Positions 6,724 through 31,293 of a stretch of DNA of 64,000 nt are shown in pieces. This DNA comes from a candidate division WWE3 bacterium. Lineage in GTDB: Bacteria; Patescibacteriota; WWE3; UBA101185; UBA10185. The DNA lies in the NCBI GenBank assembly GCA_052035175.1, contig JBPOHV010000001.1, forward strand, positions 622,428 to 686,427. Direction: 5' to 3'. Both the position numbers and the translations under genes were made by a program. The notes beneath the pieces were generated by a model, which was given only the letters and a program-made list of their open reading frames with translations, was not told the DNA's origin and did not search any database. Each line of letters opens with the position of its first letter. Positions within the stretch are counted from its first letter, which is position 1.

Positions 6724-6847
6724 GGATTTGTTAGATTAAAGGTGATAAAATAAGGCCGACGAAGTACAGTCTTGGGTATACGAGCTTACTCATCCCGCTT
6801 CGCGGGATTGCGTTTCCTCGTATAACCCCTCGCGCACTTCGTGCTCT

Positions 6848-11720: not shown

Positions 11721-11743
11721 GAGACCAGGTCAGACCTGGTCTC
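11721..11743. repeat. tRNA-associated palindromic repeat (perfect palindrome GAGACCAGGTC-A-GACCTGGTCTC)
   Basis: Lies 22 nt upstream of the tRNA-Leu(TAG) 5' end, overlapping its inferred -35 region. Confidence 0.8.
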
Positions 11744-15929: not shown

Positions 15930-15990
15930 TCAGCCAAAATAAACAAAGATTAGTATCTTTTTAGTGAGTCTGATAAAATCGGAGTGTTGT

Positions 15991-16067
15991 GGGCTCATAG
16001 CTCAGATGGTTAGAGCGTTGCATTGACATTGCAGAGGTCTCTGGTTCGATTCCAGATGAGCCCACCA
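15991..16067 (+). tRNA. tRNA-Val(GAC)
   Basis: Acceptor GGGCTCA/TGAGCCC, anticodon loop TTGACAT, T-arm TCTGG-TTCGATT-CCAGA. CCA is encoded. Confidence 0.8.
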
Positions 16068-16074
16068 TTTAACA

Positions 16075-17172
16075 ATGAACATATACAAAAATTTATCATC
16101 AGGAGATATCTCCTTACAAGAAACGGCAAGTGAAACAACATATACAAAAGATTCAAGAAAACACGACATCGGATCTGCTAAAGATCTCGCAAAGGAAATA
16201 ATTAGGAAAATAAGACACGCCCCCTATGTAACAAAACAGGTAGCGAACTCAGGCGTAAATAATATTGCAGAATCAATAGTATTACAAGATTTGGAAAACA
16301 AGGGGGTAGACCATATCTCTCGAATAAAAAAAGATGATAACGGTTTACCGATGTCTATTAGTGGACTTGTATCAATTGGCAATAAAGGAGATCCATATTT
16401 ACTTACAAGTCTAGGGCTCGAAAAAATTGATGGGGAGGATTGGGAAAATGTGGAATTTGAAAGCGAGCATGCCTTAGTTAGGGCAAGTATAAATGCATGT
16501 TATACACTCCAGGATATATACGACAAAGGTTATCTGCATCACGATATAAAACCAACAAACTTGATGCAAGGTAAAGATGGGAACACATATATTATAGACT
16601 TTAACAGTGCAAAAAAACATAAAGATGGAATTTCAAAGACAGAGACAGGAACACCTGAGTATCAATCTCCAGAAAGACGCTTTCCAGAAATATTTCGACA
16701 ATTTTATGGGGGACCTGAGGTACTACTTAAAACTAAAGTAACCGGTGATATATATGCACTTGCCGTAACAATAGCAAAAACGGCCGGCATTGATATCACA
16801 CCTTTCTTGTTAGAGTTTCCAAAATACATACAATCAACCGATCAAGAAGAAAACGAAAAAAAATATAAGCTATACGCAAGTGCAGTCACCGCATTGATAC
16901 AAGAGAGACTTAATACATTTCATCAAAGTATCGAAGACGCCGTCGTAAGGAGGGAAATGTCAGGAAAATTGGGGCTGGTACTAATATTAAATACTAGTGA
17001 GGATTATTTAAAAAGAGCTCAATCATTTGGCGAATTTGCAAAAACCTTAGAAATGGTAAACGACGCACAAATTGCAGATAGCACACTGTTTGAGTATATT
17101 AGCCCTAGACAGAGGAAGAAAATAGCTACAACTACAACAAAGGTCAACCCATTGCCAATGAGTAACGAGTAA
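16075..17172 (+). CDS. atypical eukaryotic-like Ser/Thr protein kinase-like protein
   Basis: Catalytic-loop HHDIKPTN, DFN in place of DFG, and GTPEYQSPE in place of APE. There is no obvious glycine-rich loop. The gene starts 7 nt after tRNA-Val. Confidence 0.55.
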   Translation: MNIYKNLSSGDISLQETASETTYTKDSRKHDIGSAKDLAKEIIRKIRHAPYVTKQVANSGVNNIAESIVLQDLENKGVDHISRIKKDDNGLPMSISGLVSIGNKGDPYLLTSLGLEKIDGEDWENVEFESEHALVRASINACYTLQDIYDKGYLHHDIKPTNLMQGKDGNTYIIDFNSAKKHKDGISKTETGTPEYQSPERRFPEIFRQFYGGPEVLLKTKVTGDIYALAVTIAKTAGIDITPFLLEFPKYIQSTDQEENEKKYKLYASAVTALIQERLNTFHQSIEDAVVRREMSGKLGLVLILNTSEDYLKRAQSFGEFAKTLEMVNDAQIADSTLFEYISPRQRKKIATTTTKVNPLPMSNE

Positions 17173-17213
17173 TATACGCTATATACATAGTACTACTTTA
17201 AAACGCACCCCAT

Positions 17214-18482
17214 ATGGCGCGATTTGGTGAAGAATTAACAGAAATACAATCAGAAATAGCTGGCACAGCCCCAAGTGGGAACAAATACATTTTTTTGTAT
17301 TTGACTATGATTTTTTTGGTGACATTATCTGATGCGGTAATGTCATATCTTTCCCCTGTATACATCAATAACGTCTATAATGATACGTTCGCTGTTGGGT
17401 TAATACTTGCTATATCATCGTCATGCGGGTTTTTCTTTGACCTGTTTGTTTCGACCAGACTCAGACACAAAAGTTTTAGATTTTTTACAAAATATATGGT
17501 CATTTTCTCGATCGTATTCCCGCTATCATTTTTATTATTGCCACATATCTTTTTTACTTTTGCATTAGGCATGGTTGTATGGGCGATTTATTATGAAATG
17601 CGCGGTTACTCAAACTTTCATTATGTGCAACACACAGTCAAAGTTTCTCAACACGCAAAAATGTGGGGATTTATTTTGACAACTCAATACATCGCATATT
17701 TCATCGGGCCATTGATAGCCACAAGTATAGATACACAATGGGATCGATTGCCTTTATTAATAGCAGTTATTTCTACCACACTTGGCTGTTTTATCTTTTA
17801 TTCATCAAAATACTTTAAAGCGCATCAAGAAGTCAAAGAAGCAAAAGTATACACTCTGAACGATTTGGTAAAAGAGTTTAGAGCTATGAATGCTTTGGTA
17901 AAGCGCACTTTTTTCTTTTTGTTATTTAGCTTTACTTTGATACTTATTGACGTATCTTTTTGGACAATGGGTGCACTCTATTCACAAGAACTAATGCAAA
18001 AATCAGAATTGGGGAAGTTTTTCATTAGCATGTATGGTATTCAAGGACTTTATTGCGGAATACTTGCTAGTAAAGCTAATCTCTTTGGTAAAAAGAAAAC
18101 CTCATTCTTAATAGGTATAGTTGTAGGACTTATGATGATAGGCATTTCAATAACTGACAGTGTTTATAAAACACTTTTACTTGTCATGGGAGTTTCTGCA
18201 TTGTATGGAATATGCATAATATTGATAAGCGCTGTCTTTGAAGACTATGTTTCGCGATTACACGAAACATCAAACTATATGATTTCGTTGGAACAGATGA
18301 TTGCAAACATGGCATATGTTATAGGACCAATAGGTCTTGGTTGGGTAGGTCAAACAGTAGGAGTAAAAAACACATTTGGAGTCGTAGGTATTGTAATAAT
18401 GATAGCCTCTGCATGTGCATTAGTTTTTGTACCTAAAAAAATCAAAATGCCACAGGCAGAGTTAAAGTCTATCGAACAATGA
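17214..18482 (+). CDS. MFS-type transporter
   Basis: About 12 predicted TM helices in a 6+6 arrangement. Confidence 0.55.
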   Translation: MARFGEELTEIQSEIAGTAPSGNKYIFLYLTMIFLVTLSDAVMSYLSPVYINNVYNDTFAVGLILAISSSCGFFFDLFVSTRLRHKSFRFFTKYMVIFSIVFPLSFLLLPHIFFTFALGMVVWAIYYEMRGYSNFHYVQHTVKVSQHAKMWGFILTTQYIAYFIGPLIATSIDTQWDRLPLLIAVISTTLGCFIFYSSKYFKAHQEVKEAKVYTLNDLVKEFRAMNALVKRTFFFLLFSFTLILIDVSFWTMGALYSQELMQKSELGKFFISMYGIQGLYCGILASKANLFGKKKTSFLIGIVVGLMMIGISITDSVYKTLLLVMGVSALYGICIILISAVFEDYVSRLHETSNYMISLEQMIANMAYVIGPIGLGWVGQTVGVKNTFGVVGIVIMIASACALVFVPKKIKMPQAELKSIEQ

Positions 18483-19297
18483 ATCTTCATCTGACAACTA
18501 AGACTTATATAAAATTGACACCAATAGTTGCCACACTTGCAGTTGCAGCTTTTTTTATTTCACAAAGTATAGTCGAATTATTGCAAAGAAACATTTTTGA
18601 TATACACCACGAGCTATATCTGCAAATAGTATTGGCACTTACGCTTATGTTTGTAGCGACGACGCTTACAATAGGTGTATGGGGTCAAAATATTCAATGG
18701 TTAATTATAACGTTGCCGATTATTTTAGGCACAATATTTGCCATCCCAAATAATCTTACAAATATACTGATGATAGCACCACTTATTTTTTATGGAATTT
18801 ATCTTTCTACTAAAATCTCACAAAATTCGATCAAGATCGATATCATTACTTCGCTAACTCCCGTGATTAAAGCGCTTATTTTTTATTTTTCATTAATAGC
18901 TGCAACTATTTACTATACTAACTTTGCAAACATTGAGTTGATAAAACAGTCTACAACAAAACTACTCCAAAATACGGTGCAAGAAATAGTATCAGCTCAA
19001 ATTAATAGTACACTAGGTGCAAACTTTGCTTATCTTGAAAAGCTGGGATTTTCTACAGACTTTGCAATCGCACAAATTATAAACACAAAAGATATTGTCA
19101 ATCCTTGGTTTGATAAGTATGAAGAGGCGATATCTCCTATAGTTTCTATTATTTTCTTCACATTGATAGGATTTCTTGGAGGAATTGCAAGATATATCTA
19201 TATGATTGTCATTATGCCTATAATATTTATTTGCAAAAAAACAAACTTTTTGAATACACAAAACATACAAGTTGAAAAAGAAACTCTTACATTTTGA
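18479..19297 (+). CDS. polytopic membrane protein, function unknown
   Basis: Multiple hydrophobic helices. Overlaps the MFS gene stop. Confidence 0.4.
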   Translation: MNLHLTTKTYIKLTPIVATLAVAAFFISQSIVELLQRNIFDIHHELYLQIVLALTLMFVATTLTIGVWGQNIQWLIITLPIILGTIFAIPNNLTNILMIAPLIFYGIYLSTKISQNSIKIDIITSLTPVIKALIFYFSLIAATIYYTNFANIELIKQSTTKLLQNTVQEIVSAQINSTLGANFAYLEKLGFSTDFAIAQIINTKDIVNPWFDKYEEAISPIVSIIFFTLIGFLGGIARYIYMIVIMPIIFICKKTNFLNTQNIQVEKETLTF

Positions 19298-19299
19298 TA

Positions 19300-20049
19300 C
19301 TAAAGAGGCTGAACCAACTCGGCTATCTTTACAGCATCTTCAAGCTTATAAACACCTATACGTGTGCGTAACAACGACGTTAAAACAGCGGATGTGTTTA
19401 AATATTGGCCAAGATCGTGTGCAAGTGACCGTATATAAGTACCGCTACCGCATACTACTTTTAGAGATAAAATAGGTAAGTTTACTAACTTTTCGTCGAT
19501 TAAAATCTCAGTTTCAACAAAGTCTATAATGTCGATTTTATAAATGTGTACTCTTTTAATTGGTAAATCTACATGTGTTAATAAATTATTTCTAGCTAAA
19601 TCGTAAAGTTTTTTACCTTTAACTTTGACTGCTGAATAAGGAGGAACTGTTTGATCGATGTCTCCTATAAATTTTGAAAGCGCAGATTGAATGCGCATTA
19701 AATCTAGATTTGCCCCTTTAACAAAAGAAATTTCTGATGAATCAAGGTCATAAGTAGGAGAATCAACTCCAAACGCTATTTTTGCTATATATTCTTTGTC
19801 GTAAGATAAAAAGTCATTTTGCTTTTTGGTATCTTGCTCTGTCAAAACCACCAAAACTCCCTCAGCCGCTGGATCAAGTGTTCCTGCGTGACCAATCCGG
19901 CGAGTATGCAAAACACCTCGTAATTTGGCCACAACGTCAAATGACGTCCAACCTCTTTCTTTATAAATATTTATAATCACACTGGCATTATATGCTAATA
20001 TGGGCGTAGATAAAATTCCCTGCCTACAATTAATATGGTGCCTGAGCAA
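19300..20049 (-). CDS. truB: tRNA pseudouridine(55) synthase
   Basis: GHAGTLDPAAEGVLVV catalytic motif. Confidence 0.8.
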   Translation of the reverse strand: MLRHHINCRQGILSTPILAYNASVIINIYKERGWTSFDVVAKLRGVLHTRRIGHAGTLDPAAEGVLVVLTEQDTKKQNDFLSYDKEYIAKIAFGVDSPTYDLDSSEISFVKGANLDLMRIQSALSKFIGDIDQTVPPYSAVKVKGKKLYDLARNNLLTHVDLPIKRVHIYKIDIIDFVETEILIDEKLVNLPILSLKVVCGSGTYIRSLAHDLGQYLNTSAVLTSLLRTRIGVYKLEDAVKIAELVQPL

Positions 20050-20910
20050 GCTAAATTCTTAGTTATAGTAAACAGTATCATTAATAATGCCGAGCAAAAA
20101 ATTTTGATACTTAAACGTAGTCCAAAAAGAGAATATAACCCAGGTAAATGGGAATTACCTGGTGGTAAAGTTGCGCTTTACGAATCGTTAAAAAGCGCCG
20201 TCGAGAACCTTGTCTTCACAGATTACGGCATTTCAATTACATCAAATGATAATAGATACTACTGCAATAATCACTTTATCTCCGAAGGAAAATACAAAGG
20301 CTACGAGTATCTAGAGCTTACAACCGGTGCAAAATTGATCGCTGGCAGTGTAGATATAAGTATAGATGAATATACTCAATTTGAATGGATAAAGATTGAA
20401 GATGCATTTGATTACGACCTAACTATAAACACATTACACTCTTTGACGAAATATTATGAAGATGTAAAAAAGCTAGAAAACTTGGACGAACCGAACGAAC
20501 GCCCAGTAATCATAGTCGGAAGAGCACTTATAAAAAATAAAGATGACAAATTTTTATTTATTAAAAGAAGCGAAACTAATACATATCCAAATACTTGGGA
20601 ACTTCCAGGAGGAAAGCTAAATATGCTAGAAACAATCGACAATGCTGTAATCAGAGAAGTATTTGAAGAAACCAATCTTGTTTTGAAAATAAAAAACCTA
20701 GTCTTGTATATAAACAGTTATATCGAAAATTCTGGACGACATAGGGGATATACATATGTAAACTTTGTTAGCGATACGCAAATATCTTCTGGCAAGATAA
20801 AACTCACTGAAAAGCATTCTGCATACAAATGGGTAACAAAAAAAGAAATACAAGATTTGGAATTATCACCATATATGGGGTTACAAATTTCAGAAATCTT
20901 TTTTAAATAA
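20035..20910 (+). CDS. tandem Nudix-domain hydrolase
   Basis: Two GKWELPGGK / NTWELPGGK Nudix-type segments, the second followed by REVFEETNL. Confidence 0.6.
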   Translation: MVPEQAKFLVIVNSIINNAEQKILILKRSPKREYNPGKWELPGGKVALYESLKSAVENLVFTDYGISITSNDNRYYCNNHFISEGKYKGYEYLELTTGAKLIAGSVDISIDEYTQFEWIKIEDAFDYDLTINTLHSLTKYYEDVKKLENLDEPNERPVIIVGRALIKNKDDKFLFIKRSETNTYPNTWELPGGKLNMLETIDNAVIREVFEETNLVLKIKNLVLYINSYIENSGRHRGYTYVNFVSDTQISSGKIKLTEKHSAYKWVTKKEIQDLELSPYMGLQISEIFFK

Positions 20911-20947
20911 TTGACTAAGAAACAATACACATTGTAATATATTAACA

Positions 20948-21235
20948 TTGTTTAGCAATCTATCCCCAGAATTTATAGTCACTACACTTTTTGGCAGCGG
21001 TATTTTACTAACAACATTAAAAGGTAGCATTGAAATCGGCAGATTTTCACAAAGATTAGATAATTTAGAGAAACGCGTAGATAGTTTGGATGAAAAGTTA
21101 GATAGAAAAATCGAATCTCTAGACACAAAGCTAGAAGGGGCTTTCAGGTATTTAAACTCACGCATAGACAACTTGGCTTATTATGTTAGCGGCATAAAGC
21201 AAGCAGAAACCATAAAAACAACAACCCGCCAATAG
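20948..21235 (+). CDS. small membrane-anchored coiled-coil protein
   Basis: TM helix followed by heptad-like LDNLEKRVDSLDEKLDRKIESLDTKLE. Confidence 0.35.
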   Translation: MFSNLSPEFIVTTLFGSGILLTTLKGSIEIGRFSQRLDNLEKRVDSLDEKLDRKIESLDTKLEGAFRYLNSRIDNLAYYVSGIKQAETIKTTTRQ

Positions 21236-21323
21236 GCGGATATACTTTAAATAAAGTAGATAGTTCAGGTAATAAATATTAAATTTCTTGCATCTCTAAA
21301 CAAACCCTTTAGTTGGTGCTAAA

Positions 21324-23108
21324 ATGAGGTCACTTCATATGAGTAAAATACGAAACGAACTAAAAGACGATCCTTTAATGCCATTAAGGCATACTGCAGA
21401 ACACATATTGCATATGTCTATGGAAAAACTATTTCCAGGCTTGATGAAAGTAATGGGACCACCTATTGAAAACGGGTTTTACCACGATTTTGACTATGAA
21501 GGAAAAGTTTCAGAAGAAGATTTTCCAAAAATCGAGGCTGAAATGCAAAAAATAATTGACGCTGATTTACCAATTAAACTAGTCGAAACTACCGTAAAAG
21601 AAGCCAAAGAAATATTTAGCTCTAATAAATACAAACTCGAGTTTTTGGAAGAAATTGAAAAAAAAGGCGAAAAAGTAACTTTGTATCAAATAGGTGAAAA
21701 AGACACACAATTTTATGATTTAGATCTGTGTGCAGGCCCACATATATCAAGTACTGGTGGCGTTAAAGCATTCAAACTCATGAATATAGCCGGAGCTTAT
21801 TGGAGAGGGGATTCAAACAACAAAATGTTAGGGCGCATTTATGGGACTGCATTTGATAAGCAAGAAGCTTTGGAAGAGTACCTGAAAAACTTGGAATTGG
21901 CCAAAGAACACGATCACAAAAAACTTGGCGTAGCTTTGGAATTGTTTATGTTCCACGAAACTGCTCCTGGTATGGCATATTGGTTACCAAAAGGCGTAAC
22001 ACTTTATAACGAGCTCGTTGAATTTTGGAGACAAGAACACAAACAAAGAGGCTATCTAGAAATATTTTCACCATTAATCAATAAAAAAGCATTATATGAA
22101 ACATCAGGACATTGGGAACATTACAAAGAAGACATGTTTATCGCTGATATGGGTGAAAATGAAGTCTTCGCTCTTAAACCAATGAATTGTCCAAACGCAA
22201 TGGTCGTTTTTGGAAGCAAATCACGATCTTATCGAGAACTACCATTTAGACTGGGTGACACTGACTGTTTACATAGATACGAGTTATCTGGCGCACTCAA
22301 TGGCTTACTTAGAATTCGAGAGTTTAGACAAGACGATGCACATATTTTTGTATCAGAAGATCAAATCAAAACTGAATTTCAAAATTTATTTGAAATTACA
22401 CAAAAGTTTTATTCTATATTTGGATTAGAATATAGATTTAGACTAGGAACCAGACCAGAAAAGTTTATGGGTGACCCAAAGTTGTGGGACCGTGCCGAAA
22501 AAGAACTTACTGAAATACTAGAAGAATCAGGTAAAGACTATTTTGTACGTGATGGAGATGGTGCATTTTATGGGCCAAAGATAGATATTTTGATGAAAGA
22601 TGCTTTGGGACGAGATTGGCAAATGGGTACACTGCAACTAGATTTACAGATTCCACGCAGGTTTGGATTGGAATACACCGATAAAGAAGGTAACGCACAA
22701 ACACCAATTGTTATCCATAGAGTGGTTTATGGATCATTAGAAAGATTCATAGGATTAATTACAGAACATTTTGGTGGGGCATTTCCGGTATGGTTAGCGC
22801 CCGTCCAAGTAAAAGTTATAACTATATCTGACAAACAAAATGACTACGCCTACAGCGTAAAACAAGCCCTAGAAGCTAAAAACATAAGAGTAGAGGTCGA
22901 TGACCGTAATGAATCAATGGGTGCAAAAATAAGAGACGCACAAATGCAAAAGACACCTTATATGTTGGTAGTAGGTGATAGAGAAAAAGAAAACAACCAA
23001 GTTAGCGTACGCTTACGCACCGGAGAAGACCTAAAAGCACTACCATTAAACGAAGTAACTGATAAAATATCTGAAATATATTTGACCAAAAGCCTACAGT
23101 TATGGTAA
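21324..23108 (+). CDS. thrS: threonyl-tRNA synthetase (lacks N-terminal TGS domain)
   Basis: HTAEHILHMSMEKLFP...GPPIENGFYHDFD plus class II core motifs. An alternative start at 21339 has a better SD. Confidence 0.9.
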   Translation: MRSLHMSKIRNELKDDPLMPLRHTAEHILHMSMEKLFPGLMKVMGPPIENGFYHDFDYEGKVSEEDFPKIEAEMQKIIDADLPIKLVETTVKEAKEIFSSNKYKLEFLEEIEKKGEKVTLYQIGEKDTQFYDLDLCAGPHISSTGGVKAFKLMNIAGAYWRGDSNNKMLGRIYGTAFDKQEALEEYLKNLELAKEHDHKKLGVALELFMFHETAPGMAYWLPKGVTLYNELVEFWRQEHKQRGYLEIFSPLINKKALYETSGHWEHYKEDMFIADMGENEVFALKPMNCPNAMVVFGSKSRSYRELPFRLGDTDCLHRYELSGALNGLLRIREFRQDDAHIFVSEDQIKTEFQNLFEITQKFYSIFGLEYRFRLGTRPEKFMGDPKLWDRAEKELTEILEESGKDYFVRDGDGAFYGPKIDILMKDALGRDWQMGTLQLDLQIPRRFGLEYTDKEGNAQTPIVIHRVVYGSLERFIGLITEHFGGAFPVWLAPVQVKVITISDKQNDYAYSVKQALEAKNIRVEVDDRNESMGAKIRDAQMQKTPYMLVVGDREKENNQVSVRLRTGEDLKALPLNEVTDKISEIYLTKSLQLW

Positions 23109-23159
23109 GTTTTAGGGCGTAAAGACGGAGGTTTTTCAACTATACAAAGAAAATACGAT

Positions 23160-23651
23160 ATAAATGAACGAATAAGGTTGCGAGAGATGCTAGTAATCAC
23201 TAGAGATGGTGAAAATCTCGGGGTCATAACCAAAGAGCAGGCCTTGAGAGAAGCAAAAGAACGAGAGCTCGATTTGGTTGTCATAGCTGAGAATTCTCAG
23301 CCTCCTGTAGCCAAGATCTTAGACTTTAAGAAGTTTTTGTACGAAGAAAACAAAAAGCTTTCTGCAGCTAAGTCTAGAGCAAAAAAGAGTGAACTTAAGA
23401 TCTTTGAGATAGGTCTTTACATAAGTAAAGGCGATCTAGACAAGAAATTGGGTAGATCAAAAGAGTTTTTACAAGACGGAAATCGAGTAAAGTTTTCTAT
23501 CAAAATGAGAGGAAGACAAAACTTGTTTCCTGAAGTAGCCTTGGAAAAACTACAGATTATTGAAAAAGAACTTGAAGGTATAGGAAAAAAAGAGTCTGAA
23601 CCTAAAAGACAAGGAAATGGCTTTTGGGTAGTATATGTTTCTGCAAAATGA
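23160..23651 (+). CDS. infC: translation initiation factor IF-3 (probable non-canonical ATA/ATT-type start)
   Basis: INERIRLREMLVITRDGENLGV...DLVVIAENSQPPVAKILDFKKFLYE. The conserved N-terminus lies upstream of the first ATG/TTG. Confidence 0.8.
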   Translation: MNERIRLREMLVITRDGENLGVITKEQALREAKERELDLVVIAENSQPPVAKILDFKKFLYEENKKLSAAKSRAKKSELKIFEIGLYISKGDLDKKLGRSKEFLQDGNRVKFSIKMRGRQNLFPEVALEKLQIIEKELEGIGKKESEPKRQGNGFWVVYVSAK

Positions 23652-23663
23652 TATAAGTTTGAT

Positions 23664-23873
23664 ATGAAGACAAGAAAAACGTTAATAAAAAGAATAAAAA
23701 TAACAAAAAGCGGTAAAATTGTTAAAAAGCAAAATAGCACAGGCCATTTAAAAGCAAAATGGGACGCTAGCAGAAAAACAAGAAAAAGAACCAGACTAGT
23801 ACAATTGAACAAAGGACATAGAAGGTTATTTAAAAAAATGCTAGGAAAAGCAGGAAAAAAGATAAAAGGTTAA
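23664..23873 (+). CDS. rpmI: ribosomal protein L35
   Basis: MKTRKTLIKRIKITKSGKI... Confidence 0.85.
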   Translation: MKTRKTLIKRIKITKSGKIVKKQNSTGHLKAKWDASRKTRKRTRLVQLNKGHRRLFKKMLGKAGKKIKG

Positions 23874-23877
23874 TAAT

Positions 23878-24234
23878 ATGCCAAGAGCAAAAGGTGGATT
23901 TAAAACAAAACGAAAACATAATAAAGTACTTAGCTTAGCAAAAGGCTATCGTGGTACTAGAAATAGACTTTTCAAAAGAGCTAATGAAGCAGTCTTAAGA
24001 GCAGGAGAACATGCATTTGCAGGACGTAAAATAAAACGAAGAGATTTGCGCAGATTATGGATTGTACGTATAAATGCTGCACTCATGCCATTTGATATCA
24101 AATACAGCCGATTTATAAATGCTCTCAAAAAAGCAAATATCGACTTGGATCGCAAAGTATTATCCGACATGGCTATTACTGATCCCAAATCTTTTGAAAA
24201 GGTGGTTGAAAAAGCCAAAGAATCGTTTAATTAG
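23878..24234 (+). CDS. rplT: ribosomal protein L20
   Basis: MPRAKGGFKTKRKHNKVLSLAKGYRG... Confidence 0.9.
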   Translation: MPRAKGGFKTKRKHNKVLSLAKGYRGTRNRLFKRANEAVLRAGEHAFAGRKIKRRDLRRLWIVRINAALMPFDIKYSRFINALKKANIDLDRKVLSDMAITDPKSFEKVVEKAKESFN

Positions 24235-24269
24235 TTTAATTCGACCAACTACCCTGATAGAATATCAAT

Positions 24270-25298
24270 ATGGATTTGGAACGCGATGTAAAAGCATTAC
24301 AAGATAAGTTTCTACTCGATCTTACTGAAGCCAGACAAACTGGTAATTTTGACAAGCTTTATCTAAACTATTTTTCAAAAAGTCATGGAGCTACCATCGC
24401 ACTATTGCAAGTGTTACCAAAGATGTCGTCGGATGAAAAACGCGTTTGGGGACCAATTTTGAATGCTCTTCAAGAAAAGCAAAAATCTGACATCGAAGAA
24501 GCAAAATATCAGTATAATCAAAATTTGTACAACGACCCTACAATCGATCTAACAATTCCACAAGTACCACAAAAAGTGGGAAGACTGCATCCTACAACTC
24601 AAACTTTTAGAGAAATGAATGAATTCTTTAGATATCTAGGATTTTCTGTTATAGATGGGCCAGAAATTGAGACAGCATTATATAACTTCCGTAAACTAAA
24701 TTTACCAGAAGGCCATCCGGCAAACGATTTGCAAGACAGTTTGTTTATACATAAAGACGATAAAAATAGCGATAATGATATTTTATTAAGAACACAGACT
24801 TCATCGGTAGAAGCCAGAATTTTGTCAGAATACAAACCGCCGATCAGGATTGTCGTTCCTGGCAATTGTTTTAGAAACGAAACTTTGAATATGACCAATA
24901 GTGACTTTTTTACGCAATTTCAAGGCGTTGTTGTTGATAAAGGTATAACAATACAGCACTTGAAAACTACCTTGACACAATTTCATAAATTTTTGTTTGG
25001 AGATGATGTTGTATTGAGATTTAGATACAAATATTATCCAGAAGTTAGCCCTGGAATGGGCGTAGACATGAAATGCAAATTTTGTGAAGGAACCGGCTGC
25101 ACCACATGCAAACAACGTGGGTGGATCGAAGTATTAGGCAGCGGTATGATTCATTACAATACGCTCAAGATGTGTGGAATAGATCCAGAAATTTATACTG
25201 GATATGCATTTGGTATAGGAAGCGACAGACAAGTAATGATGAAACACGGAATCACAGACATCAGAGCATTATACGGAGCTGGTTTGGTATATAAATAA
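24270..25298 (+). CDS. pheS: phenylalanyl-tRNA synthetase alpha subunit
   Basis: HPTTQTFREMNEFFRYLGF...EGHPANDLQDSLFI and class II motifs. Confidence 0.9.
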   Translation: MDLERDVKALQDKFLLDLTEARQTGNFDKLYLNYFSKSHGATIALLQVLPKMSSDEKRVWGPILNALQEKQKSDIEEAKYQYNQNLYNDPTIDLTIPQVPQKVGRLHPTTQTFREMNEFFRYLGFSVIDGPEIETALYNFRKLNLPEGHPANDLQDSLFIHKDDKNSDNDILLRTQTSSVEARILSEYKPPIRIVVPGNCFRNETLNMTNSDFFTQFQGVVVDKGITIQHLKTTLTQFHKFLFGDDVVLRFRYKYYPEVSPGMGVDMKCKFCEGTGCTTCKQRGWIEVLGSGMIHYNTLKMCGIDPEIYTGYAFGIGSDRQVMMKHGITDIRALYGAGLVYK

Positions 25299-25306
25299 AA
25301 ACAAAT

Positions 25307-27250
25307 ATGAAAATACCTGTTGAATGGTTATCTGAATACATAAAAATAAATAAGACGCCAAAAGAACTAGCGCAAGACTTTACAGCGGTTGGATTGATGC
25401 TTGATAAGTATGATGAAAAAAACAGTGTACTCGATCTAGAACACCGCATGGATCGCTCTGATTGGCTTTCTATATTAGGGTGTGCTAGAGATTTGGCAGC
25501 ATATAACAAAACTGAACTAAGATATCCAAAAGCTTACTTAGCAGATTTACCAAAGATTCCTGAAAGTGAGCAAGTGCAAATAAATGTAGAAGGAACTGAT
25601 TTTGTTAATAGATTTTATACACGTATTTTCAAAAACATAAAAATACAAGATTCTCCAGATTGGCTGAAAAAGCGATTGGAAGCATATGGTTTACCTTCTA
25701 TAAATAATATTGTAGATATAACCAATTATGTAATGGTCGAATACGGACAACCAATGCACGCACACGACTTGGACAAAATGCAAACAAAAGAGATTACTTT
25801 CAGACACGCAAAACCTGGTGAAAAGATTGTAACCTTGCTAGGACAAGAGATAGAACTCGACTCTAATACTTGGATAACAACAAACAACAATTTACCTACA
25901 GGCGTAGCTGGAATTGTAGGTGGAAAACAAGTAGCAATAGATGCGACAACAAAAAATATTGTTTTGGATTCTGGAAATTATAATCAAACAACAATTAGGC
26001 ATACATCAAGAAACATTAAAATAACCAATGAAACTGTTTTGCGCACAGATAAGTTTTTGCACGCGCACAACAATGAACTTGCAATAAAAAGAGCAACTCA
26101 GCTCATACTAGAACTGGCAGGCGGGGACGCTTTTGAAAATTTCGACTATTATCCAACGAGGCAAGGCCTGACCAAGCAACAGCTTAGATATAGCAGACTA
26201 GTAAAAATTGGCGGTATGCATTTTTCAGACGCTGAAATTGAAGATATTTTAACGAGATTAGAATACAAAGTATTATCAAAAAAAGAAGCTGAAGATAATA
26301 CAAAGTTATGGGAACTCGAAGTACCTTATTTTAGAACAGACGTCCAAGTCGAAGACGACATTGTCGCAGATATATTGCGAATAAACGATTACAACAAAAT
26401 ACCAGCCGCATCGATAGACATGGCACCACCATCAGAGATAACACCTGCGGCATATAAATTTGAACAACTATTAAAAGATGAATTGGTAAAATTAGGTCTT
26501 GACGAACATATAACTGCCCCAATGATACCTATCGACAAACTTAACACCGAGCAAGTAACGATTTTGAGTAGCCTGAGCGCAGACAGACAAGGTCTGAGAA
26601 CAAATGTATATACTACGTTGAAAGCTGCTATCGACACTTATAAAAAGCACAATTTACATGAAATAGGGGTATTTGAAATAGGAAATACTTTTCACAAAAC
26701 TGGGAATGGTTCAAAACACGAAGACTATTTAGAAAAAAAGGAAGTAGAAATAATATACGAAAATACTCAGATGAACGTGAAAGAAAACTCAATCAAACTG
26801 AGACAAATTTTAGCAAGCTTATTAACTACTTTGGGAATCGCTAACTACTATCTAGAAAAAGAAGGTCAAAATGTGTGTATAAAATCACAAAGTCAAAATA
26901 CTTTGGGAATACTCACACATACGCACGCTACCTTGGCGATTGATACGTTGCTACTTGAGTATAAAAAACCAAGGTTAGCTATTTCTGAAATGCAAAACTT
27001 TACCAACTTTGATATTTCTTTGGTTATGAATCTAGAGCAACAATTTGGTGCGATATATAAATCTATTAAAGATTTTGATCAAAATATTGTTGATGTCGTT
27101 GTTGCTGAAGACTACATTGGTGCAAATGTCGAACAAGGCAAAAAAGCTGTGTTGGTTCAAATTACGCATAAATTAGCTGATACTTCAGAAGCACGAGTTA
27201 AGCTTTTGGAACATTTGGTTAAAACTTTTAATATTTCTCACCGCAGTTAA
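25307..27250 (+). CDS. pheT: phenylalanyl-tRNA synthetase beta subunit (short form)
   Basis: Its position after pheS, the B3/B4 and B5-like regions, and its length of 647 aa. Confidence 0.85.
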   Translation: MKIPVEWLSEYIKINKTPKELAQDFTAVGLMLDKYDEKNSVLDLEHRMDRSDWLSILGCARDLAAYNKTELRYPKAYLADLPKIPESEQVQINVEGTDFVNRFYTRIFKNIKIQDSPDWLKKRLEAYGLPSINNIVDITNYVMVEYGQPMHAHDLDKMQTKEITFRHAKPGEKIVTLLGQEIELDSNTWITTNNNLPTGVAGIVGGKQVAIDATTKNIVLDSGNYNQTTIRHTSRNIKITNETVLRTDKFLHAHNNELAIKRATQLILELAGGDAFENFDYYPTRQGLTKQQLRYSRLVKIGGMHFSDAEIEDILTRLEYKVLSKKEAEDNTKLWELEVPYFRTDVQVEDDIVADILRINDYNKIPAASIDMAPPSEITPAAYKFEQLLKDELVKLGLDEHITAPMIPIDKLNTEQVTILSSLSADRQGLRTNVYTTLKAAIDTYKKHNLHEIGVFEIGNTFHKTGNGSKHEDYLEKKEVEIIYENTQMNVKENSIKLRQILASLLTTLGIANYYLEKEGQNVCIKSQSQNTLGILTHTHATLAIDTLLLEYKKPRLAISEMQNFTNFDISLVMNLEQQFGAIYKSIKDFDQNIVDVVVAEDYIGANVEQGKKAVLVQITHKLADTSEARVKLLEHLVKTFNISHRS

Positions 27251-27273
27251 GGACCTGGTCAGACCTGGTCTAG
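27247..27273. repeat. 27-bp inverted-repeat end (left) TTAAGGACCTGGTCAGACCTGGTCTAG
   Basis: Perfect reverse complement of 28593-28619. It overlaps the pheT stop codon. Confidence 0.9.
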
Positions 27274-27377
27274 TGTTCATAAATATGTTATCGTCTCATC
27301 GTAGGTTTTGTGAGCAGCTAATCCCGCGGCCCGGGAAGTAGCTGTCTTAATCAACACAAGACCTGCAACACCAGATG

Positions 27378-27440
27378 GGAACAGTAGCTTCAAAGTGACG
27401 TTTGTCGCACCTCCCATCTGGTTTTTCTTTTTTTTGCACT
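27378..27440 (+). terminator. rho-independent terminator (likely end of the thrS-pheT operon)
   Basis: CCAGATGGGA ... TCCCATCTGG 10-bp stem followed by TTTTTCTTTTTTTTG. Confidence 0.55.
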
Positions 27441-27578
27441 TCCGAGACAATCATAGTAATATCCCAACAGCTAAAGCAGTGGCGAGATATGTGTAGGCGA
27501 AAGCCAGCAAGCCGCGAATCGCGGAACACTAATCTCCCTCTGCTTTAGCACACTCGTTTAAAGGTTAAACCTTCATAT

Positions 27579-27607
27579 TTGCTTATTTTAAAAGTTTTGT
27601 ATAGAAT
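27579..27607 (+). promoter_or_regulatory. putative sigma70 promoter for the tRNA-like gene at 27621
   Basis: TTGCTT, 17-nt spacer, TAGAAT. Confidence 0.4.
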
Positions 27608-27620
27608 GCACTCCATCGCC

Positions 27621-27692
27621 GGAGATGTAGCTCAATTGGGAGAGCACCGAGCTTTTGCTCGTAGGTTGCAGGTTCGAGTCCCGCCATTTCCA
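27621..27692 (+). tRNA. tRNA-like gene, anticodon region CTTTTG (Lys-TTT-like), apparent 6-nt anticodon loop, no encoded CCA
   Basis: Acceptor GGAGATG/CATTTCC pairs at all 7 positions with one G-U, and the D-arm GCTC-AATTGGGA-GAGC is canonical. The T-arm GCAGG-TTCGAGT-CCCGC has one mismatch. The anticodon stem CCGAG/CTCGT leaves only 6 loop nucleotides. Confidence 0.45.
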
Positions 27693-27960
27693 TTCGAGTG
27701 CACAACAGGTAGAACGTCTCCTATCATGTTGTGCGCTCGTGTAGGGCTGACAAGGTGATGCGCTCGCATCATTAACCTTGTCAGCCCTCCTCCAAATTCT
27801 TCACATACACCACTTACGTGATACTATTCAAACATTAAAATGTGCAAGCGGGAAACTATATGCACATACGGAGTGAAGCTTAGAAATGCTCGGTCAGGCA
27901 TCGGGGATTTTATTCTAGCTTCACTCCTTTGCTTTCTAAACACCCAACTTTAAGATTTGA

Positions 27961-27989
27961 TTGACCTATAGTTGTGGTGTTGTTATACT
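27961..27989 (+). promoter_or_regulatory. near-consensus sigma70 promoter
   Basis: TTGACC, 17-nt spacer, TATACT. Confidence 0.5.
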
Positions 27990-27996
27990 AGCGTTT

Positions 27997-28085
27997 GATA
28001 AACTGTGCCCAAGAAACTTGGACACAGTATCGTTGGGGCATTGCTTCGCCGCAAGGCACAGGAAAAGCAATGCCCCCATTTTCTT
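27997..28085 (+). ncRNA. candidate small RNA or structured tRNA leader
   Basis: Directly downstream of the consensus promoter. Ends in GGGGCATTGC...GCAATGCCCC (10-bp stem) followed by CATTTTCTTT, which abuts the tRNA at 28087. Confidence 0.3.
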
Positions 28086-28086
28086 T

Positions 28087-28160
28087 AGGGATGTGGCGCA
28101 ATTGGAAGACGCGTCGGACTTATAATCCGAATTTTGCGGGTTCGAAGCCCGTCATCCCTA
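28087..28160 (+). tRNA. candidate tRNA-Ile(TAT), no encoded CCA
   Basis: Acceptor AGGGATG/CATCCCT, anticodon stem TCGGA/TCCGA with loop CTTATAA, T-arm GCGGG-TTCGAAG-CCCGT. The D-arm is irregular (3-bp stem, 11-nt loop). Confidence 0.5.
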
Positions 28161-28261
28161 TATAGCCTACAAGAACAAACGTCTCTCTTGTAGACTTACT
28201 GGATGCATTTGGTGATAGCCTCCTTCTATCTTCTAATGCATCCAGTTTATTCAAATGTTAT

Positions 28262-28288
28262 TTAAGGACCTGGTCAGACCTGGTCTAA
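28262..28288. repeat. internal direct copy of the 27-bp repeat (TTAAGGACCTGGTCAGACCTGGTCTAA)
   Basis: 26 of 27 positions identical to the left end copy. Confidence 0.9.
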
Positions 28289-28400
28289 TATTTATAAATC
28301 CCACGTCTTAGGTTAATAGCTTATTTTTTTTAATAGATTGTTTTTTTAATGGACAAGTTTGCCTTTTGTTCGGGTACTTAGTATAATCCAAGACATAAAA

Positions 28401-28471
28401 GGCGGTATAGCTCAGCGGGAGAGCACCGGGCGACAACCCGGAAGTCCGTGGTCCGACTCCACGTGCCGCCA
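28401..28471 (+). tRNA. tRNA-like gene, anticodon region CGACAA, apparent 6-nt loop, unusual T-loop TCCGACT, no encoded CCA
   Basis: Acceptor GGCGGTA/TGCCGCC, D-arm GCTC-AGCGGGA-GAGC, anticodon stem CCGGG/CCCGG enclosing 6 nt, T-stem CGTGG/CCACG. Confidence 0.45.
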
Positions 28472-28592
28472 ATCCGGAGTATATTATGCGGTCGTAACCA
28501 ATCGTTCCGCTTATATACTCTAGAGTAGAGTGAACTAAGGGCCTTACCTAAGGCGTTCGCCTTTAGTTCACTCTAATTTTCTTTATTGGAAA

Positions 28593-28619
28593 CTAGACCA
28601 GGTCTGACCAGGTCCTTAA
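28593..28619. repeat. 27-bp inverted-repeat end (right), exact reverse complement of 27247-27273
   Basis: CTAGACCAGGTCTGACCAGGTCCTTAA. Abuts the PBP1A stop codon. Confidence 0.9.
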
Positions 28620-28620
28620 A

Positions 28621-31293
28621 TTACTCCAGAACCCAGCCTTTAATATTTAAATCAACGCTATCTGAACCTTCGTTACCGTCATCGTCTTCGGCTTCTACTT
28701 TAAATGTGTGATTGCCCAATTGATTTTTATTAAACGTAAAGTTATAACCATACGGCGCTGACTTATCTGTTGCAACCTCATTACCATCCATATATATTTT
28801 GATACGCTCAATATCGTTGTATGCCGATATTTCAACATTAATTCTAAAATCTAGTGGAACGTCGTCACCATTTTCTACGCCTACAATAGAAACATTAACA
28901 TCATCTTTGTTTGAAACTTCGTTTCCGTCAAACTCTAACTTACTAACCATTTGAGGAGGGAAATATTTATCATCACCACTAAAGTTCTCTTTTAACCAAC
29001 TATCTACATAAGTCTGCCACAATGAAACTTCTGGTTTTATTTTGATAAATGTTTTGACTTCTGTTTCATCTGCATCTCTACATTCATTATTTGCTATACG
29101 ACCATCAATTTTGCATATTTCTATTTTTTGATACCAATCGCTCACCGAAGTAGGCTCGGTACCTTTTACAAACCATTCTTCGCGTGTGGCTTCCTCACCA
29201 GTAGGTAATCCACCTGTCAAACGGTCAACTTTGATCTTTTGTACATTTTCTGGAGATTCAAACTTTTCTTCTTCTTTATCTTTTAAATATTCAACAAAGA
29301 AATTATGCCAAATAGGTGTCGCACCAGTTATACCAGAAGAAATATACTGGTTTAAAGGCTCGTTGTTGTTGTTTCCAACCCAAGTACCAACGACAAGCGA
29401 AGGAGTATACCCAACAGCATAATTATCACGCTTATCATTGGTTGTACCTGTCTTAACTGCTACTTGATGACCAGGAATATTTAGTAAACTACTAGGACCA
29501 AACGCATCACTACGTGCGCCATTATCAGATAAAATATCTGAAATCAAAAAAGCAACACCATCGCTTAGTGCACGTTTGCCACCAGCGTCTGTCCACTTGT
29601 ACAAGGTATTACCAGATGAATCTTTTACTTCTAATATTGGCGTAGGTTCTCGATACATGCCTTTGGATGCAAAAACAGTATATGCACCAGTCAATTGAAG
29701 TAAAGACGTTTCTGCGCCACCAAGCGTAATTGCAAGCCCATAACGAGAACGATCGGTAAATGAAGTTATACCCATTTTTTCTGCTTGATCTATCATTGTA
29801 TCTACACCTACAATCTGCAAAGCTTTTACAGCAGGAATATTCAATGAATTAGCTAGTGATTTTCGTAATGACATCGGTCCCCTAAAAGTACCATCATAAT
29901 TTACAGGCTCATAAGGTTCATCAACTTTGGCGCCAGGAAATTTTGTAGGAACATCTAAAAATGGAAACGCTGATGTATAACCCTTTTCTAGCATTGTTGC
30001 ATACGTCACTGGTTTTATCGCAGAACCAGGCTGACGAAGCGAAGTAGCTACATTTACTTGCGGTTCAAATGTACAGCTATCTTCACCAGTTATACCAGAA
30101 ATGCAATCTGCTGGTTCTGAATTCAAGAAAAATCCTTTACTACCTACCATTGCAAGAACTTGCGAAGTTTTGGAGTCTAAGGCAACTAATGCACCGTTTC
30201 CTACATTATAATTCTTTTCTTTTTCAACTTGGTCAAAAACTATTTGCTGTGCTTTATTTTGTAAATCTAAATCTAGTGTGGTTGTTACTTGTAAACCAGC
30301 TTGATCTACATAATCTTCTCCAAACATATCGGCCAAAACACTTTTGACATAAAAGACGAAATGAGGAGCATTCAATGGAACATCGGCGTCTTGAAATGCC
30401 AATTGCTCGTTTTTTGCTGCTTCATAGTCTTCGGTACTCAAAAAGTATTTATTGCCATCTTCTCCTTGCCAACCGCGTTCGTGCATCAATTGCAAAACAT
30501 AGTTTTTGCGTGATACACCTGCTTCTGGCGTATTACCAAAATAAGAATACCGAGATGGACTTTGAGGTAAACCAGCAATATATGCTGCTTCGGCAATCGT
30601 AAGGTCTTTTGGTGATTTATTAAAATAAGATCGTGCAGCAGTAAAAACCCCATAATTTTGCCCACCGTATGGAGTCTCATTCAAATACATTTGTAGTATT
30701 TCATTTTTTGTATATCTGTTTTCTAATTGTAAAGAAAGTATAAGTTCTTTGGCTTTGCGTGTAATAGTTTGTTCTTGGCTCAAAAGGGTATTTTTTACAA
30801 CTTGCTGTGTAAGCGTAGACCCGCTTTGTAAACCTTCACCCAATGCTATGTTTTTGACTGCGCGCAACATGCCCAAAAGATAAAAACCTTGATGGCTATA
30901 AAAGTTTGCGTCTTCAGCAGCTAATGTAGCGTGTATCAAGTTTGGTGAAATATCTTCGAATTTGACTAAAGTTCTATTTTTATCGCCATAAAATTCGTAT
31001 AAGATTTTGCCATTGCGATCAAAAATCTTTGTCGAAAGCTCAAAACTGCGCTCCAACAATTCATTTGGATTGGGCAATTCATACGAAAAATATGCAAAAA
31101 CAGCAAAAATTAATGTGATTGCAAAAACTAGTCCAAATAAAGACATTTTGGCCAAAAACAAAGCAATTTTTAGCTTTTTAGTTTTGTCTGTAATAAATTT
31201 CTTTGGTATAAGTCTGCTGCTAATACTAGGAGACTTTGATGATTTGCTTGGTAAGGTTGCTTTAGTTTTCTGTTGCATACGATCATTATACAA
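28621..31293 (-). CDS. class A penicillin-binding protein 1A (transglycosylase/transpeptidase) with C-terminal extension
   Basis: N-terminal TM and GT51 motifs (EDANFYSHQG, GGSTLTQQ). Transpeptidase SxxK/KTG motifs (KTGTTND). Confidence 0.9.
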   Translation of the reverse strand: MYNDRMQQKTKATLPSKSSKSPSISSRLIPKKFITDKTKKLKIALFLAKMSLFGLVFAITLIFAVFAYFSYELPNPNELLERSFELSTKIFDRNGKILYEFYGDKNRTLVKFEDISPNLIHATLAAEDANFYSHQGFYLLGMLRAVKNIALGEGLQSGSTLTQQVVKNTLLSQEQTITRKAKELILSLQLENRYTKNEILQMYLNETPYGGQNYGVFTAARSYFNKSPKDLTIAEAAYIAGLPQSPSRYSYFGNTPEAGVSRKNYVLQLMHERGWQGEDGNKYFLSTEDYEAAKNEQLAFQDADVPLNAPHFVFYVKSVLADMFGEDYVDQAGLQVTTTLDLDLQNKAQQIVFDQVEKEKNYNVGNGALVALDSKTSQVLAMVGSKGFFLNSEPADCISGITGEDSCTFEPQVNVATSLRQPGSAIKPVTYATMLEKGYTSAFPFLDVPTKFPGAKVDEPYEPVNYDGTFRGPMSLRKSLANSLNIPAVKALQIVGVDTMIDQAEKMGITSFTDRSRYGLAITLGGAETSLLQLTGAYTVFASKGMYREPTPILEVKDSSGNTLYKWTDAGGKRALSDGVAFLISDILSDNGARSDAFGPSSLLNIPGHQVAVKTGTTNDKRDNYAVGYTPSLVVGTWVGNNNNEPLNQYISSGITGATPIWHNFFVEYLKDKEEEKFESPENVQKIKVDRLTGGLPTGEEATREEWFVKGTEPTSVSDWYQKIEICKIDGRIANNECRDADETEVKTFIKIKPEVSLWQTYVDSWLKENFSGDDKYFPPQMVSKLEFDGNEVSNKDDVNVSIVGVENGDDVPLDFRINVEISAYNDIERIKIYMDGNEVATDKSAPYGYNFTFNKNQLGNHTFKVEAEDDDGNEGSDSVDLNIKGWVLE

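Follow-up and report, generated by a model that had tools for sequence, protein, structure and literature searches.

The locus described here raises the question of what two tRNA-like genes, each with an anticodon loop one nucleotide short, represent in a small bacterial chromosome: sequencing artifacts, dead tRNA copies, unorthodox decoders, or tRNA-shaped RNAs that act outside decoding. The genes lie in a 64,000-nucleotide stretch of a candidate division WWE3 genome (referred to here as the window), which covers 64 kb of a total of ∼925 kb. Its DNA, with a GC content of ∼36%, is ordinary for a Patescibacteria (CPR) chromosome and carries truB, thrS-infC-rpmI-rplT-pheS-pheT, a gene for PBP1A, recG, rsmD, nusB, the RNase III gene, trmD, and a type IV pilus cluster, together with eight tRNA-type genes called by ARAGORN. 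The best PheT homologues are 48 to 50% identical, with 50% the highest value among 5.8 billion proteins; among the homologues listed, the few with a named source bear the label Patescibacteria or WWE3, and a scan of GTDB genomes with this single protein retrieved no relative. Judged by PheT, the lineage is one that has no close representative in the databases.

The first tRNA-like gene (gene 1; positions 27621 to 27692, plus strand) folds into a full cloverleaf and was recognized both by ARAGORN and by the Rfam tRNA family (RF00005), the latter at 55.2 bits (gathering score, 29) with an alignment that spans the full model (positions 1 to 71) and has a one-position deletion inside the anticodon loop. 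The coordinates and anatomy proposed for this gene in the initial annotation are therefore borne out, including an acceptor stem paired at 7 of 7 positions with one G-U pair (G4-U69) and a D stem paired at 4 of 4, both seen in the drawing and the fold. The single A-C mismatch described in the T stem is A51-C63; the discriminator is A73, and TTC stands where an encoded CCA would be. ARAGORN names the gene tRNA-??? with a 2-base anticodon (tt), and its drawing shows CTTTTG under the label ?(Lys|Lys). Both programs thus agree on a 6-nt loop, CUUUUG, within the stem CCGAG/CUCGU, as had been reported, with the qualification that the stem itself pairs at 4 of 5 positions and has a C27-U43 mismatch. 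Position 38 is missing. The conserved elbow and tertiary nucleotides are all present (U8, A14, G18-G19, U54-U55-C56, A58, and the 15-48 pair). In the minimum free energy fold, a C32-G37 pair lengthens the anticodon stem to 6 bp and leaves a UUUU tetraloop.

Phage tRNA-Asn(GUU) genes are close matches to gene 1 in the D arm, anticodon stem, variable loop, and T loop, and in them the same arm carries a normal CTGTTAA loop. Because these canonical phage genes also have the C27-U43 mismatch, that mismatch is, on this comparison, no sign of decay. The identity set for Lys consists of a UUU anticodon and A73, whereas Asn needs G34 and G73 (PMC9976931). By these rules, gene 1 has a Lys-type identity set (UUU plus A73) placed on an Asn-like body. 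The earlier description of the gene as Lys-like consequently holds for the identity set and does not extend to the body, which is closest to phage tRNA-Asn genes. Relative to the Lys loop CUUUUAA, the loop of gene 1 has one deletion and an A-to-G change.

The second gene (gene 2; positions 28401 to 28471, plus strand) forms a perfect cloverleaf, which is also its minimum free energy structure at -32.6 kcal/mol. It scores 53.6 bits against RF00005 (gathering score, 29) over model positions 1 to 71, where the alignment places the missing nucleotide at position 33, and ARAGORN calls it tRNA-??? with a 2-base anticodon (ac) and the drawing label ?(Val|Cys). Its anticodon loop, CGACAA, likewise has 6 nt, such that the existence of a second short-loop gene at this position, noted initially, is upheld by both programs; the discriminator is A73, and CCA is not encoded. 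The loop is exactly that of tRNA-Val(GAC) minus U33, the nucleotide that makes the U-turn in tRNA anticodon loops. Gene 2 retains A35, C36, A73, and G20, which are identity elements for Val (PMC9976931). Its T-loop, UCCGACU, has C55 in place of U55. This unusual T-arm is also found in tRNAs called on jumbo-phage contigs, and the nearest database relatives of the gene are phage tRNA-Val genes. The bodies of the two genes thus resemble phage tRNAs, Asn-like in gene 1 and Val-like in gene 2.

Before any function is considered, the short loops must be genuine. The alternative, that indels introduced by sequencing or assembly shortened ordinary tRNA-Lys and tRNA-Val genes, draws on the T4 run in the loop of gene 1. 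An extra T in that run would give CUUUUUG, in which position 37, a purine in canonical loops, is a pyrimidine (U37) and C32 pairs with G38, and which is still no tRNA-Lys loop; the loop of gene 2 contains no homopolymer. In addition, a Logan assembly of SRR34217543 (L001; 14,148 nt) is 100% identical to window positions 15307 to 29454, including both loops, although it was possibly built from the same reads as the contig. The initial argument that one indel is unlikely to account for both genes is strengthened by these results, and we consider the indel explanation extremely improbable.

An alternative stem register that yields a standard loop was sought among suboptimal folds, and none compatible with a cloverleaf was found. 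For gene 1, the anticodon hairpins that fit a cloverleaf enclose either 4 nt (-23.6 kcal/mol) or 6 nt (-19.4 kcal/mol), and 7-nt loops occur solely in folds that break the D arm. For gene 2, the 6-nt register (-32.6 kcal/mol) is followed by an 8-nt register (-29.6 kcal/mol) and then by a 7-nt register (-26.3 kcal/mol) that needs a bulged 2-bp stem. As a rough background, 72 ARAGORN tRNA calls from 29 loci showed odd loops solely in genes 1 and 2 (in L001, the same locus) and in one other call, from a locus that had been picked by a 6-nt-loop pattern. A group I intron, a reading prompted by a report on an intron in Patescibacteria tRNA-Asn (PMC13011429), was rejected, as the loops are shortened rather than interrupted.

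If the loops are genuine, the RNAs might still decode, as doublet or -1 frameshift readers or after editing that restores the loop to 7 nt. Consistent with this, the cloverleaves are intact, the tertiary nucleotides largely so, and the anticodon triplets are recognizable; furthermore, AAA is the commonest codon in a sample of 20 genes from this chromosome, where it makes up 82% of Lys codons. On the other hand, gene 2 is missing U33, and a canonical, CCA-encoding tRNA-Val(GAC) already stands at positions 15991 to 16067 of the window, which makes gene 2 redundant for decoding; in gene 1, the predicted fold reduces the loop to a tetraloop. Neither gene is present in the syntenic loci fetched from six relatives. 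Phrase searches across 8 million papers and broader literature searches gave no natural decoder with a 6-nt anticodon loop and no precedent for one, and attempts to select two-base decoders with 6-nt loops have, to our knowledge, been unsuccessful. Decoding by these genes is thus very improbable. Of the three readings offered at the outset, the non-decoding ones (a pseudo-tRNA or a regulatory tRNA-like RNA) are favored, and the decoder is disfavored for gene 2, given its missing U33 and its redundancy.

Genes 1 and 2 are part of a 1.37-kb non-coding island that also holds a normal-looking tRNA-Ile(UAU) gene and several very stable hairpins, and that fills the exact interval between the stop codon of pheT and that of the PBP1A gene (28621 to 31293, minus strand; identified by its Pfam domains). 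Three copies of a boundary repeat were located by repeat search and pattern scans. The left copy (copy A; 27247 to 27279, plus strand), which begins with TTAAGGACCTGGTCAGACCTGGTCTAGT and comprises two tandem GACCWGGTC palindromes, starts at the pheT stop codon and is identical over 26 to 28 nt to the other two. An internal copy (copy B; 28260 to 28287, plus strand) is direct with respect to copy A and forms a perfect 28-nt inverted repeat with the right copy (copy C; 28587 to 28621, minus strand), which ends 2 nt from the PBP1A stop codon. As such, the gene 2 unit (28260 to 28621) has perfect 28-nt inverted repeats on both sides. Pattern scans placed the repeat at five sites in the 64-kb window, each beside a tRNA-type gene; apart from this repeat, no island sequence recurs elsewhere in the window. 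The lone match to the repeat in viral contigs was a chance one in a high-GC coding region (L015).

Six relatives, with PheT proteins 48 to 50% identical to that of the window, share the gene order around pheT and the PBP1A gene. In five of the six, the 3' ends of these genes leave no spacer, with overlaps of 14, 14, 4, and 4 nt and one directly adjacent pair; in the sixth, they are separated by a 182-aa open reading frame. No tRNA gene and no boundary repeat was found in the fetched syntenic loci of the six. Encoded CCA ends likewise set the island apart, being present in 5 of 5 housekeeping tRNA genes of the window versus 0 of 3 island genes. Because it is absent from these relatives and its genes lack the CCA that host genes encode, the island is best read as a lineage-specific insertion whose tRNA genes are unlike the host's own in style. 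Its terminal inverted repeats and the five repeat sites recall MITE-like elements, but any TTAA target-site duplication would coincide with the TTAA of the repeat itself, and neither another full copy of the element nor a gene for a transposase or RAYT was found in the 64-kb window.

The remainder of the island was surveyed by inverted-repeat search and folding. A terminator-like hairpin with a T-run follows pheT (27367 to 27437, plus strand; arms at 27367 to 27380 and 27412 to 27425, located by inverted-repeat search and by reading the sequence). Beyond it lies a three-way-junction hairpin RNA with GAAA- and AAU-capped arms (27470 to 27549, plus strand; -41.6 kcal/mol, z = -5.96), which is preceded by TTGCAC-17-TAATAT, a candidate promoter read by eye, and which has no Rfam match at an E value of ≤1. 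Two further hairpins (27840 to 27867 and 27870 to 27927, plus strand; z = -5.4), the second of which runs into a T-rich tail, are accompanied in a consensus scan by a promoter-like site at 27800 to 27827 and a terminator-like site at 27889 to 27905, and they are possibly a separate small transcript. At a permissive threshold, the island contains no Rfam family besides tRNA; with tRNA the sole family matched, readings of the island as GOLLD, ROOL, or a riboswitch are unsupported. Its small open reading frames (at least 25 aa) look spurious.

The tRNA-Ile(UAU) gene (28086 to 28161, plus strand) is the sole canonical-looking tRNA of the island. It was called by ARAGORN and by Rfam (59.7 bits), has a normal 7-nt loop (CUUAUAA) and an A1-U72 pair, and does not encode CCA. 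Upstream is a promoter-like TTGACC-17-TATACT (27961 to 27989; 10 of 12 consensus matches) and a structured leader with hairpins at 27997 to 28031 and 28035 to 28076 (together 27961 to 28076, plus strand; z = -4.95), and downstream are two trailer hairpins (28164 to 28246, plus strand; about 28164 to 28196 and 28198 to 28246), supported by folding (z = -6.2) and inverted repeats. Because AUA accounts for 43% of Ile codons in the 20 sampled genes, this tRNA is plausibly useful to the host.

Genes 1 and 2 are furnished in much the same manner. A -10-like hexamer, TAGAAT (27602 to 27607, plus strand), was found 13 nt 5' of gene 1 by comparison of upstream sequences, and it is the hexamer that stands at the housekeeping tRNA-Leu(taa) gene; no recognizable -35 accompanies it, and the consensus promoter scan therefore missed this -10. 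Upstream of gene 2, the scan returned TTGCCT-17-TATAAT (28359 to 28387, plus strand), with 10 of 12 matches to the sigma-70 consensus and a -10 that likewise ends 13 nt from the mature 5' end. The corresponding spacing is 9 to 12 nt in four of the five housekeeping tRNA genes and 21 nt in tRNA-Pro. On the 3' side, a pair of very stable hairpins (fold z scores from -6 to -10) begins a few bases beyond each of the three island tRNA genes. Those of gene 1 (27695 to 27788, plus strand; 27695 to 27739 and 27743 to 27788), found by folding and inverted repeats, reach -59.4 kcal/mol over 108 nt (z = -9.7). Those of gene 2 (28476 to 28575, plus strand; 28476 to 28521 and 28526 to 28575; inverted repeats, z = -6.1) are succeeded by the terminator-like ATTTTCTTT. 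From these signals, both genes are probably transcribed and processed.

These features bear on a further alternative, namely, that genes 1 and 2 are silent relics: dead copies of tRNA-Lys and tRNA-Val, unexpressed or unprocessed, that were caught before deletion. The blemishes of gene 1 (A51-C63, a loop more than one change away from that of Lys, and the missing -35) fit such a history, as does the lack of homologues of either gene in viral, GTDB, and metagenome searches. Accessory tRNA clusters also hold pseudogenes, e.g., 3 of 26 genes in an Anabaena operon (PMC8421152). Yet neutral decay would be an improbable source of a one-base loss in both 7-nt loops while the stems of gene 2 stay perfect and the elbow largely intact, and both genes keep -10 boxes placed like those of housekeeping tRNA genes. 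The genome is moreover streamlined, five of six relatives having no spacer between pheT and the PBP1A gene, and the boundary repeats, being identical, suggest that there has been little time for decay. We therefore regard silent relics as unlikely.

The explanation that we favor, if by a modest margin over doubt, is that genes 1 and 2 are acquired, probably still expressed, non-decoding pseudo-tRNAs or tRNA-like small RNAs carried on a non-coding island. The 1.37-kb segment, with its identical inverted palindromic repeats, fills a site that is spacerless in relatives, and the three tRNA-type genes on it are foreign in style, lacking CCA; upstream of each is a -10 box or promoter-like site, and 3' of each is a pair of strong hairpins. 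Each gene would then be transcribed independently, RNase P would trim a short 5' leader, the trailer would be cut after the discriminator, and CCA would be added later. By sequence and predicted fold, the products would have intact acceptor, D, and T arms and a largely intact elbow, with an anticodon arm that is 1 nt short. That the anticodon arm alone is off in both genes, which differ in identity, while the rest is preserved fits RNAs that retain a tRNA shape and are not selected for decoding; RNase P, the CCA-adding enzyme, and possibly the synthetases would still recognize them. In gene 1, the C32-G37 pair could close the loop to a UUUU tetraloop, and gene 2 lacks the U-turn nucleotide U33; from established tRNA structure, neither RNA would be expected to offer the A site of the ribosome three stacked anticodon bases, and both would be excluded from normal decoding. 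The tRNA-Ile(UAU) would be the only working decoder on the island. Any activity of the other two RNAs would depend on their tRNA shape, through which they would be bound or processed by tRNA-binding proteins (e.g., RNase P, the CCA-adding enzyme, LysRS, or ValRS), and would be like that of the Bacillus cereus tRNAOther.

To place these genes in a wider context, homologues and similar elements were sought. Patterns that fixed the D arm and anticodon stem, and would miss diverged relatives, detected no 6-nt-loop homologue of gene 1 or gene 2 in viral contigs, GTDB species genomes, or JGI metagenomes. Conservation and covariation, which would require such a homologue or a close relative of the organism, therefore lend no support to selection on the short loops or on the genes themselves. 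In viral contigs, anticodon-arm patterns allowing loops of 5 to 9 nt retrieved ordinary tRNAs with 7-nt loops (Asn, Ile-GAT, and Met) and a chance match in a coding sequence (L009). A pattern that combined a D arm with a 6-nt loop gave 0 viral matches, 1 actinobacterial element (in GTDB), and 5 metagenome loci, none homologous to the window genes.

Two of the elements encountered in these searches have an organization of their own. In the actinobacterial tRNA-like element, the body is invariant, and the central triplet of a C-U-NNN-A loop alone varies. On a contig of 65% GC (L023), tandem units consist of a short-loop tRNA-like element followed by a tRNA-like element with a truncated acceptor stem. 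Both kinds score above the Rfam tRNA threshold and are unrelated to the window genes.

Conserved tRNA-like elements with 5- or 6-nt loops are present in unrelated bacteria. They show that predicted short-loop tRNA look-alikes recur in bacteria, and because this recurrence extends to unrelated lineages, the present finding is not a curiosity of one assembly. As RNAs of tRNA origin that have ceased to decode, which is their most likely identity, the two genes are unusual but not without precedent.

Such recurrence also lends itself to the proposal that the short loop is itself selected. Genes 1 and 2 would then yield RNAs that are charged by LysRS and ValRS and excluded from the ribosome, serving as aminoacyl donors in a non-ribosomal reaction (e.g., one that modifies the cell envelope) or soaking up, as decoys or sponges, enzymes that bind tRNA or toxins that cleave it. 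The identity bases are retained in both genes (UUU and A73 for Lys; A35, C36, A73, and G20 for Val, by the rules in PMC9976931), and the same class of lesion affects both, although they differ in identity. Peptidoglycan synthesis is known to employ non-proteinogenic tRNAs (work cited in PMC3399842), and the cell-wall gene for PBP1A is the immediate neighbor of the island. That adjacency, however, is ancestral synteny rather than an association with the island. Moreover, Pfam assignments for ∼50 annotated open reading frames of the window include no Fem/MurM-type transferase, no MprF-type gene, and no toxin gene, and the non-proteinogenic tRNAs that we know of keep 7-nt loops. Selection for the short loop, though attractive, is therefore improbable. 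A broader conjecture, which we put forward tentatively and consider quite unlikely, is that the island is a small mobile cassette for short-loop, tRNA-shaped RNAs that are recognized and perhaps charged by LysRS and ValRS but barred from the ribosome, acting as carriers or decoys in an episymbiotic Patescibacteria cell; it would then be part of a wider, undescribed bacterial habit that includes the actinobacterial and L023 elements.

The locus is of interest under either outcome. If the short loops are functional, they would constitute a simple natural separation of tRNA shape, processing, and possibly charging from decoding, with a bearing on non-translational uses of tRNA and on how very small genomes neutralize acquired tRNA genes or put them to new use. 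Should the genes be disabled passengers instead, the locus would still be a clean case of non-coding DNA recently inserted into a Patescibacteria chromosome, at a site where spacers are otherwise not tolerated. In both cases, the genes call for caution in annotation, as both are well above threshold with the Rfam tRNA model, and ARAGORN alone flags the undetermined anticodon.

Several known systems invite comparison. Frameshift-suppressor tRNAs, such as the sufD type with its 8-nt loop, have, in the natural and selected cases known, expanded anticodon loops of 8 to 9 nt and read four bases. They share with genes 1 and 2 a loop size other than 7 nt on a tRNA that is normal elsewhere, but the loops described here are contracted to 6 nt rather than expanded, and we know of no established decoding activity for a contracted 6-nt loop. 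The boundary repeat, for its part, is reminiscent of REP sequences and MITEs in being a short palindromic repeat at gene ends, with perfect inverted copies that enclose a short stretch of non-coding DNA. Each of its five copies in the window neighbors a tRNA-type gene, however, which is atypical of REPs, and neither a transposase nor a RAYT gene was found.

Closer in content are the accessory tRNA arrays and phage tRNA clusters, which likewise consist of extra isoacceptor duplicates with foreign features and some non-functional members (PMC8421152, PMC4758250). Whereas those arrays comprise about 20 to 43 dense, co-transcribed genes (PMC8421152, PMC4758250), the island has three genes in 1.37 kb, each with its own promoter-like signals and hairpin trailers, and no protein genes. 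The non-proteinogenic tRNA-Gly of Staphylococcus (references 15 and 16 in PMC3399842) offers a parallel in its off-ribosome use, the building of peptidoglycan bridges, and in the cell-wall gene beside the island. It differs in having a normal 7-nt loop, in escaping EF-Tu through changes in the T-arm, and in working with Fem transferases, for which the window has no counterpart.

The nearest parallel to the reading that we favor, expressed RNAs that do not decode, is tRNAOther of B. cereus, a pseudo-tRNA that is embedded in a regulatory RNA, associated with an island, and not used in translation (PMC3399842). Genes 1 and 2 have the makings of pseudo-tRNAs in that they combine a tRNA-like fold with the loss of a feature needed for translation and are located in or beside acquired DNA. 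They share with tRNAOther a tRNA-level score, a presumed absence from translation, and an association with a genomic island (PMC3399842). For tRNAOther, which has a defined Trp anticodon, phenotypes and poor lysylation have been measured, whereas genes 1 and 2 are known from sequence alone; their defect is a 6-nt loop, there are two of them, and they have no sequence relationship to tRNAOther. The authors of that study proposed that tRNA genes, once inactivated, can take on other functions (PMC3399842).

The ends of the tRNA-bearing island (the 1.37-kb noncoding insertion between pheT and the PBP1A gene) carry a palindromic repeat whose unit is two tandem copies of GACCWGGTC with a period of 10 nt (consensus, approximately AAGGACCWGGTCAGACCWGGTCTAGT). 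Five copies of this repeat occur in the 64-kb window (2040-2062, 11722-11742, 27247-27279, 28260-28287, and 28587-28621), compared to 0 expected by chance, and every one of them adjoins a tRNA-type gene. Each of the two tRNA-Leu genes has a copy upstream of it, at distances of 46 nt and 24 nt, and the other three copies are at the island boundaries. The -35 region of tRNA-Leu(tag) is overlapped by one of these copies, and a HIT-family ORF has its stop codon inside the copy at 2040-2062. The repeat was not found in the syntenic loci of six relatives sharing the pheT-PBP1A gene order. It could be the end of a REP or MITE element or, alternatively, a tRNA gene-associated site of protein binding.

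Within the island, a unit (28260-28621) comprising a promoter-like site, tRNA-like gene 2 (the second of two island tRNA-like genes with 6-nt anticodon loops), and two hairpins is flanked by inverted repeats that match perfectly over 28 nt and are separated by 306 nt. Such an architecture would suit either a MITE-like cassette or an invertible segment; the 64-kb window showed no recombinase or transposase.

The island is rich in predicted RNA structure. A very stable, unannotated three-way-junction RNA (27470-27549; -41.6 kcal/mol, z = -6), with arms capped by GAAA and AAU, is preceded by a promoter-like TTGCAC-17-TAATAT and has no match in Rfam. Long, GC-rich, near-perfect hairpins are densely packed at 27695-27788, 27840-27927, 27997-28076, 28164-28246, and 28476-28575 (fold z-scores of -5 to -10) in a genome of 36% GC. 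Two hairpins lie 3' of each island tRNA-type gene, and AACGUCUC is common to two of the island's hairpin loops. These hairpins may act in termination or 3' protection.

The island also encodes a tRNA-Ile with a UAU anticodon (28086-28161), a type uncommon among bacteria, which has an A1-U72 pair, lacks a gene-encoded CCA, and is preceded by ∼95 nt of structured leader. Because AUA accounts for 43% of Ile codons in the genes sampled, this acquired tRNA may be an important or even the sole decoder of AUA. Elsewhere in the window, two GC-rich, UUCG-capped hairpins (6780-6847) flank a TATAAC box upstream of the housekeeping tRNA-Pro, and just upstream is a 27-codon ORF (6609-6692) that has a terminator hairpin of its own and a strong ribosome-binding site, AAGGAGG.

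Searches beyond the window retrieved several other tRNAs and tRNA-like elements. A metagenome contig of 65% GC (L023) carries two tandem units of ∼590 nt. Each contains a pair of tRNA-like sequences (at 1594-1734 and 2180-2322): the first encodes CCA and has an anticodon loop of 6 or 5 nt, and the second, which starts within ∼5 nt of it, has a truncated acceptor stem. Conserved hairpins come next. A high-GC actinobacterial (Micromonosporaceae-type) element recurs at five loci (L010, 1677-1748; L024, 2470-2541; L025, 4000-4071; L026, ∼6426-6497; and L027, ∼1551-1622). It scored 43 to 47 bits on Rfam tRNA at the three of five loci scanned (L010, L024, and L025) and received no call from ARAGORN. 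Its body is invariant, its 6-nt loop reads C-U-NNN-A with variation only in the central triplet (TTC, TTA, GGG, or GTT), and its T-loop is noncanonical (GGCAGAG or GGCGGAG). At L025, the ATG of a long ORF begins 2 nt past the element. Finally, two predicted tRNAs from jumbo-phage contigs, Gln-CUG (L018, 4033-4104) and Trp-CCA (L019, 11579-11652), share the T-arm CGTGGTCCGACTCCACG, in which the near-universal U55 of tRNAs is replaced by C55, as it is in tRNA-like gene 2.
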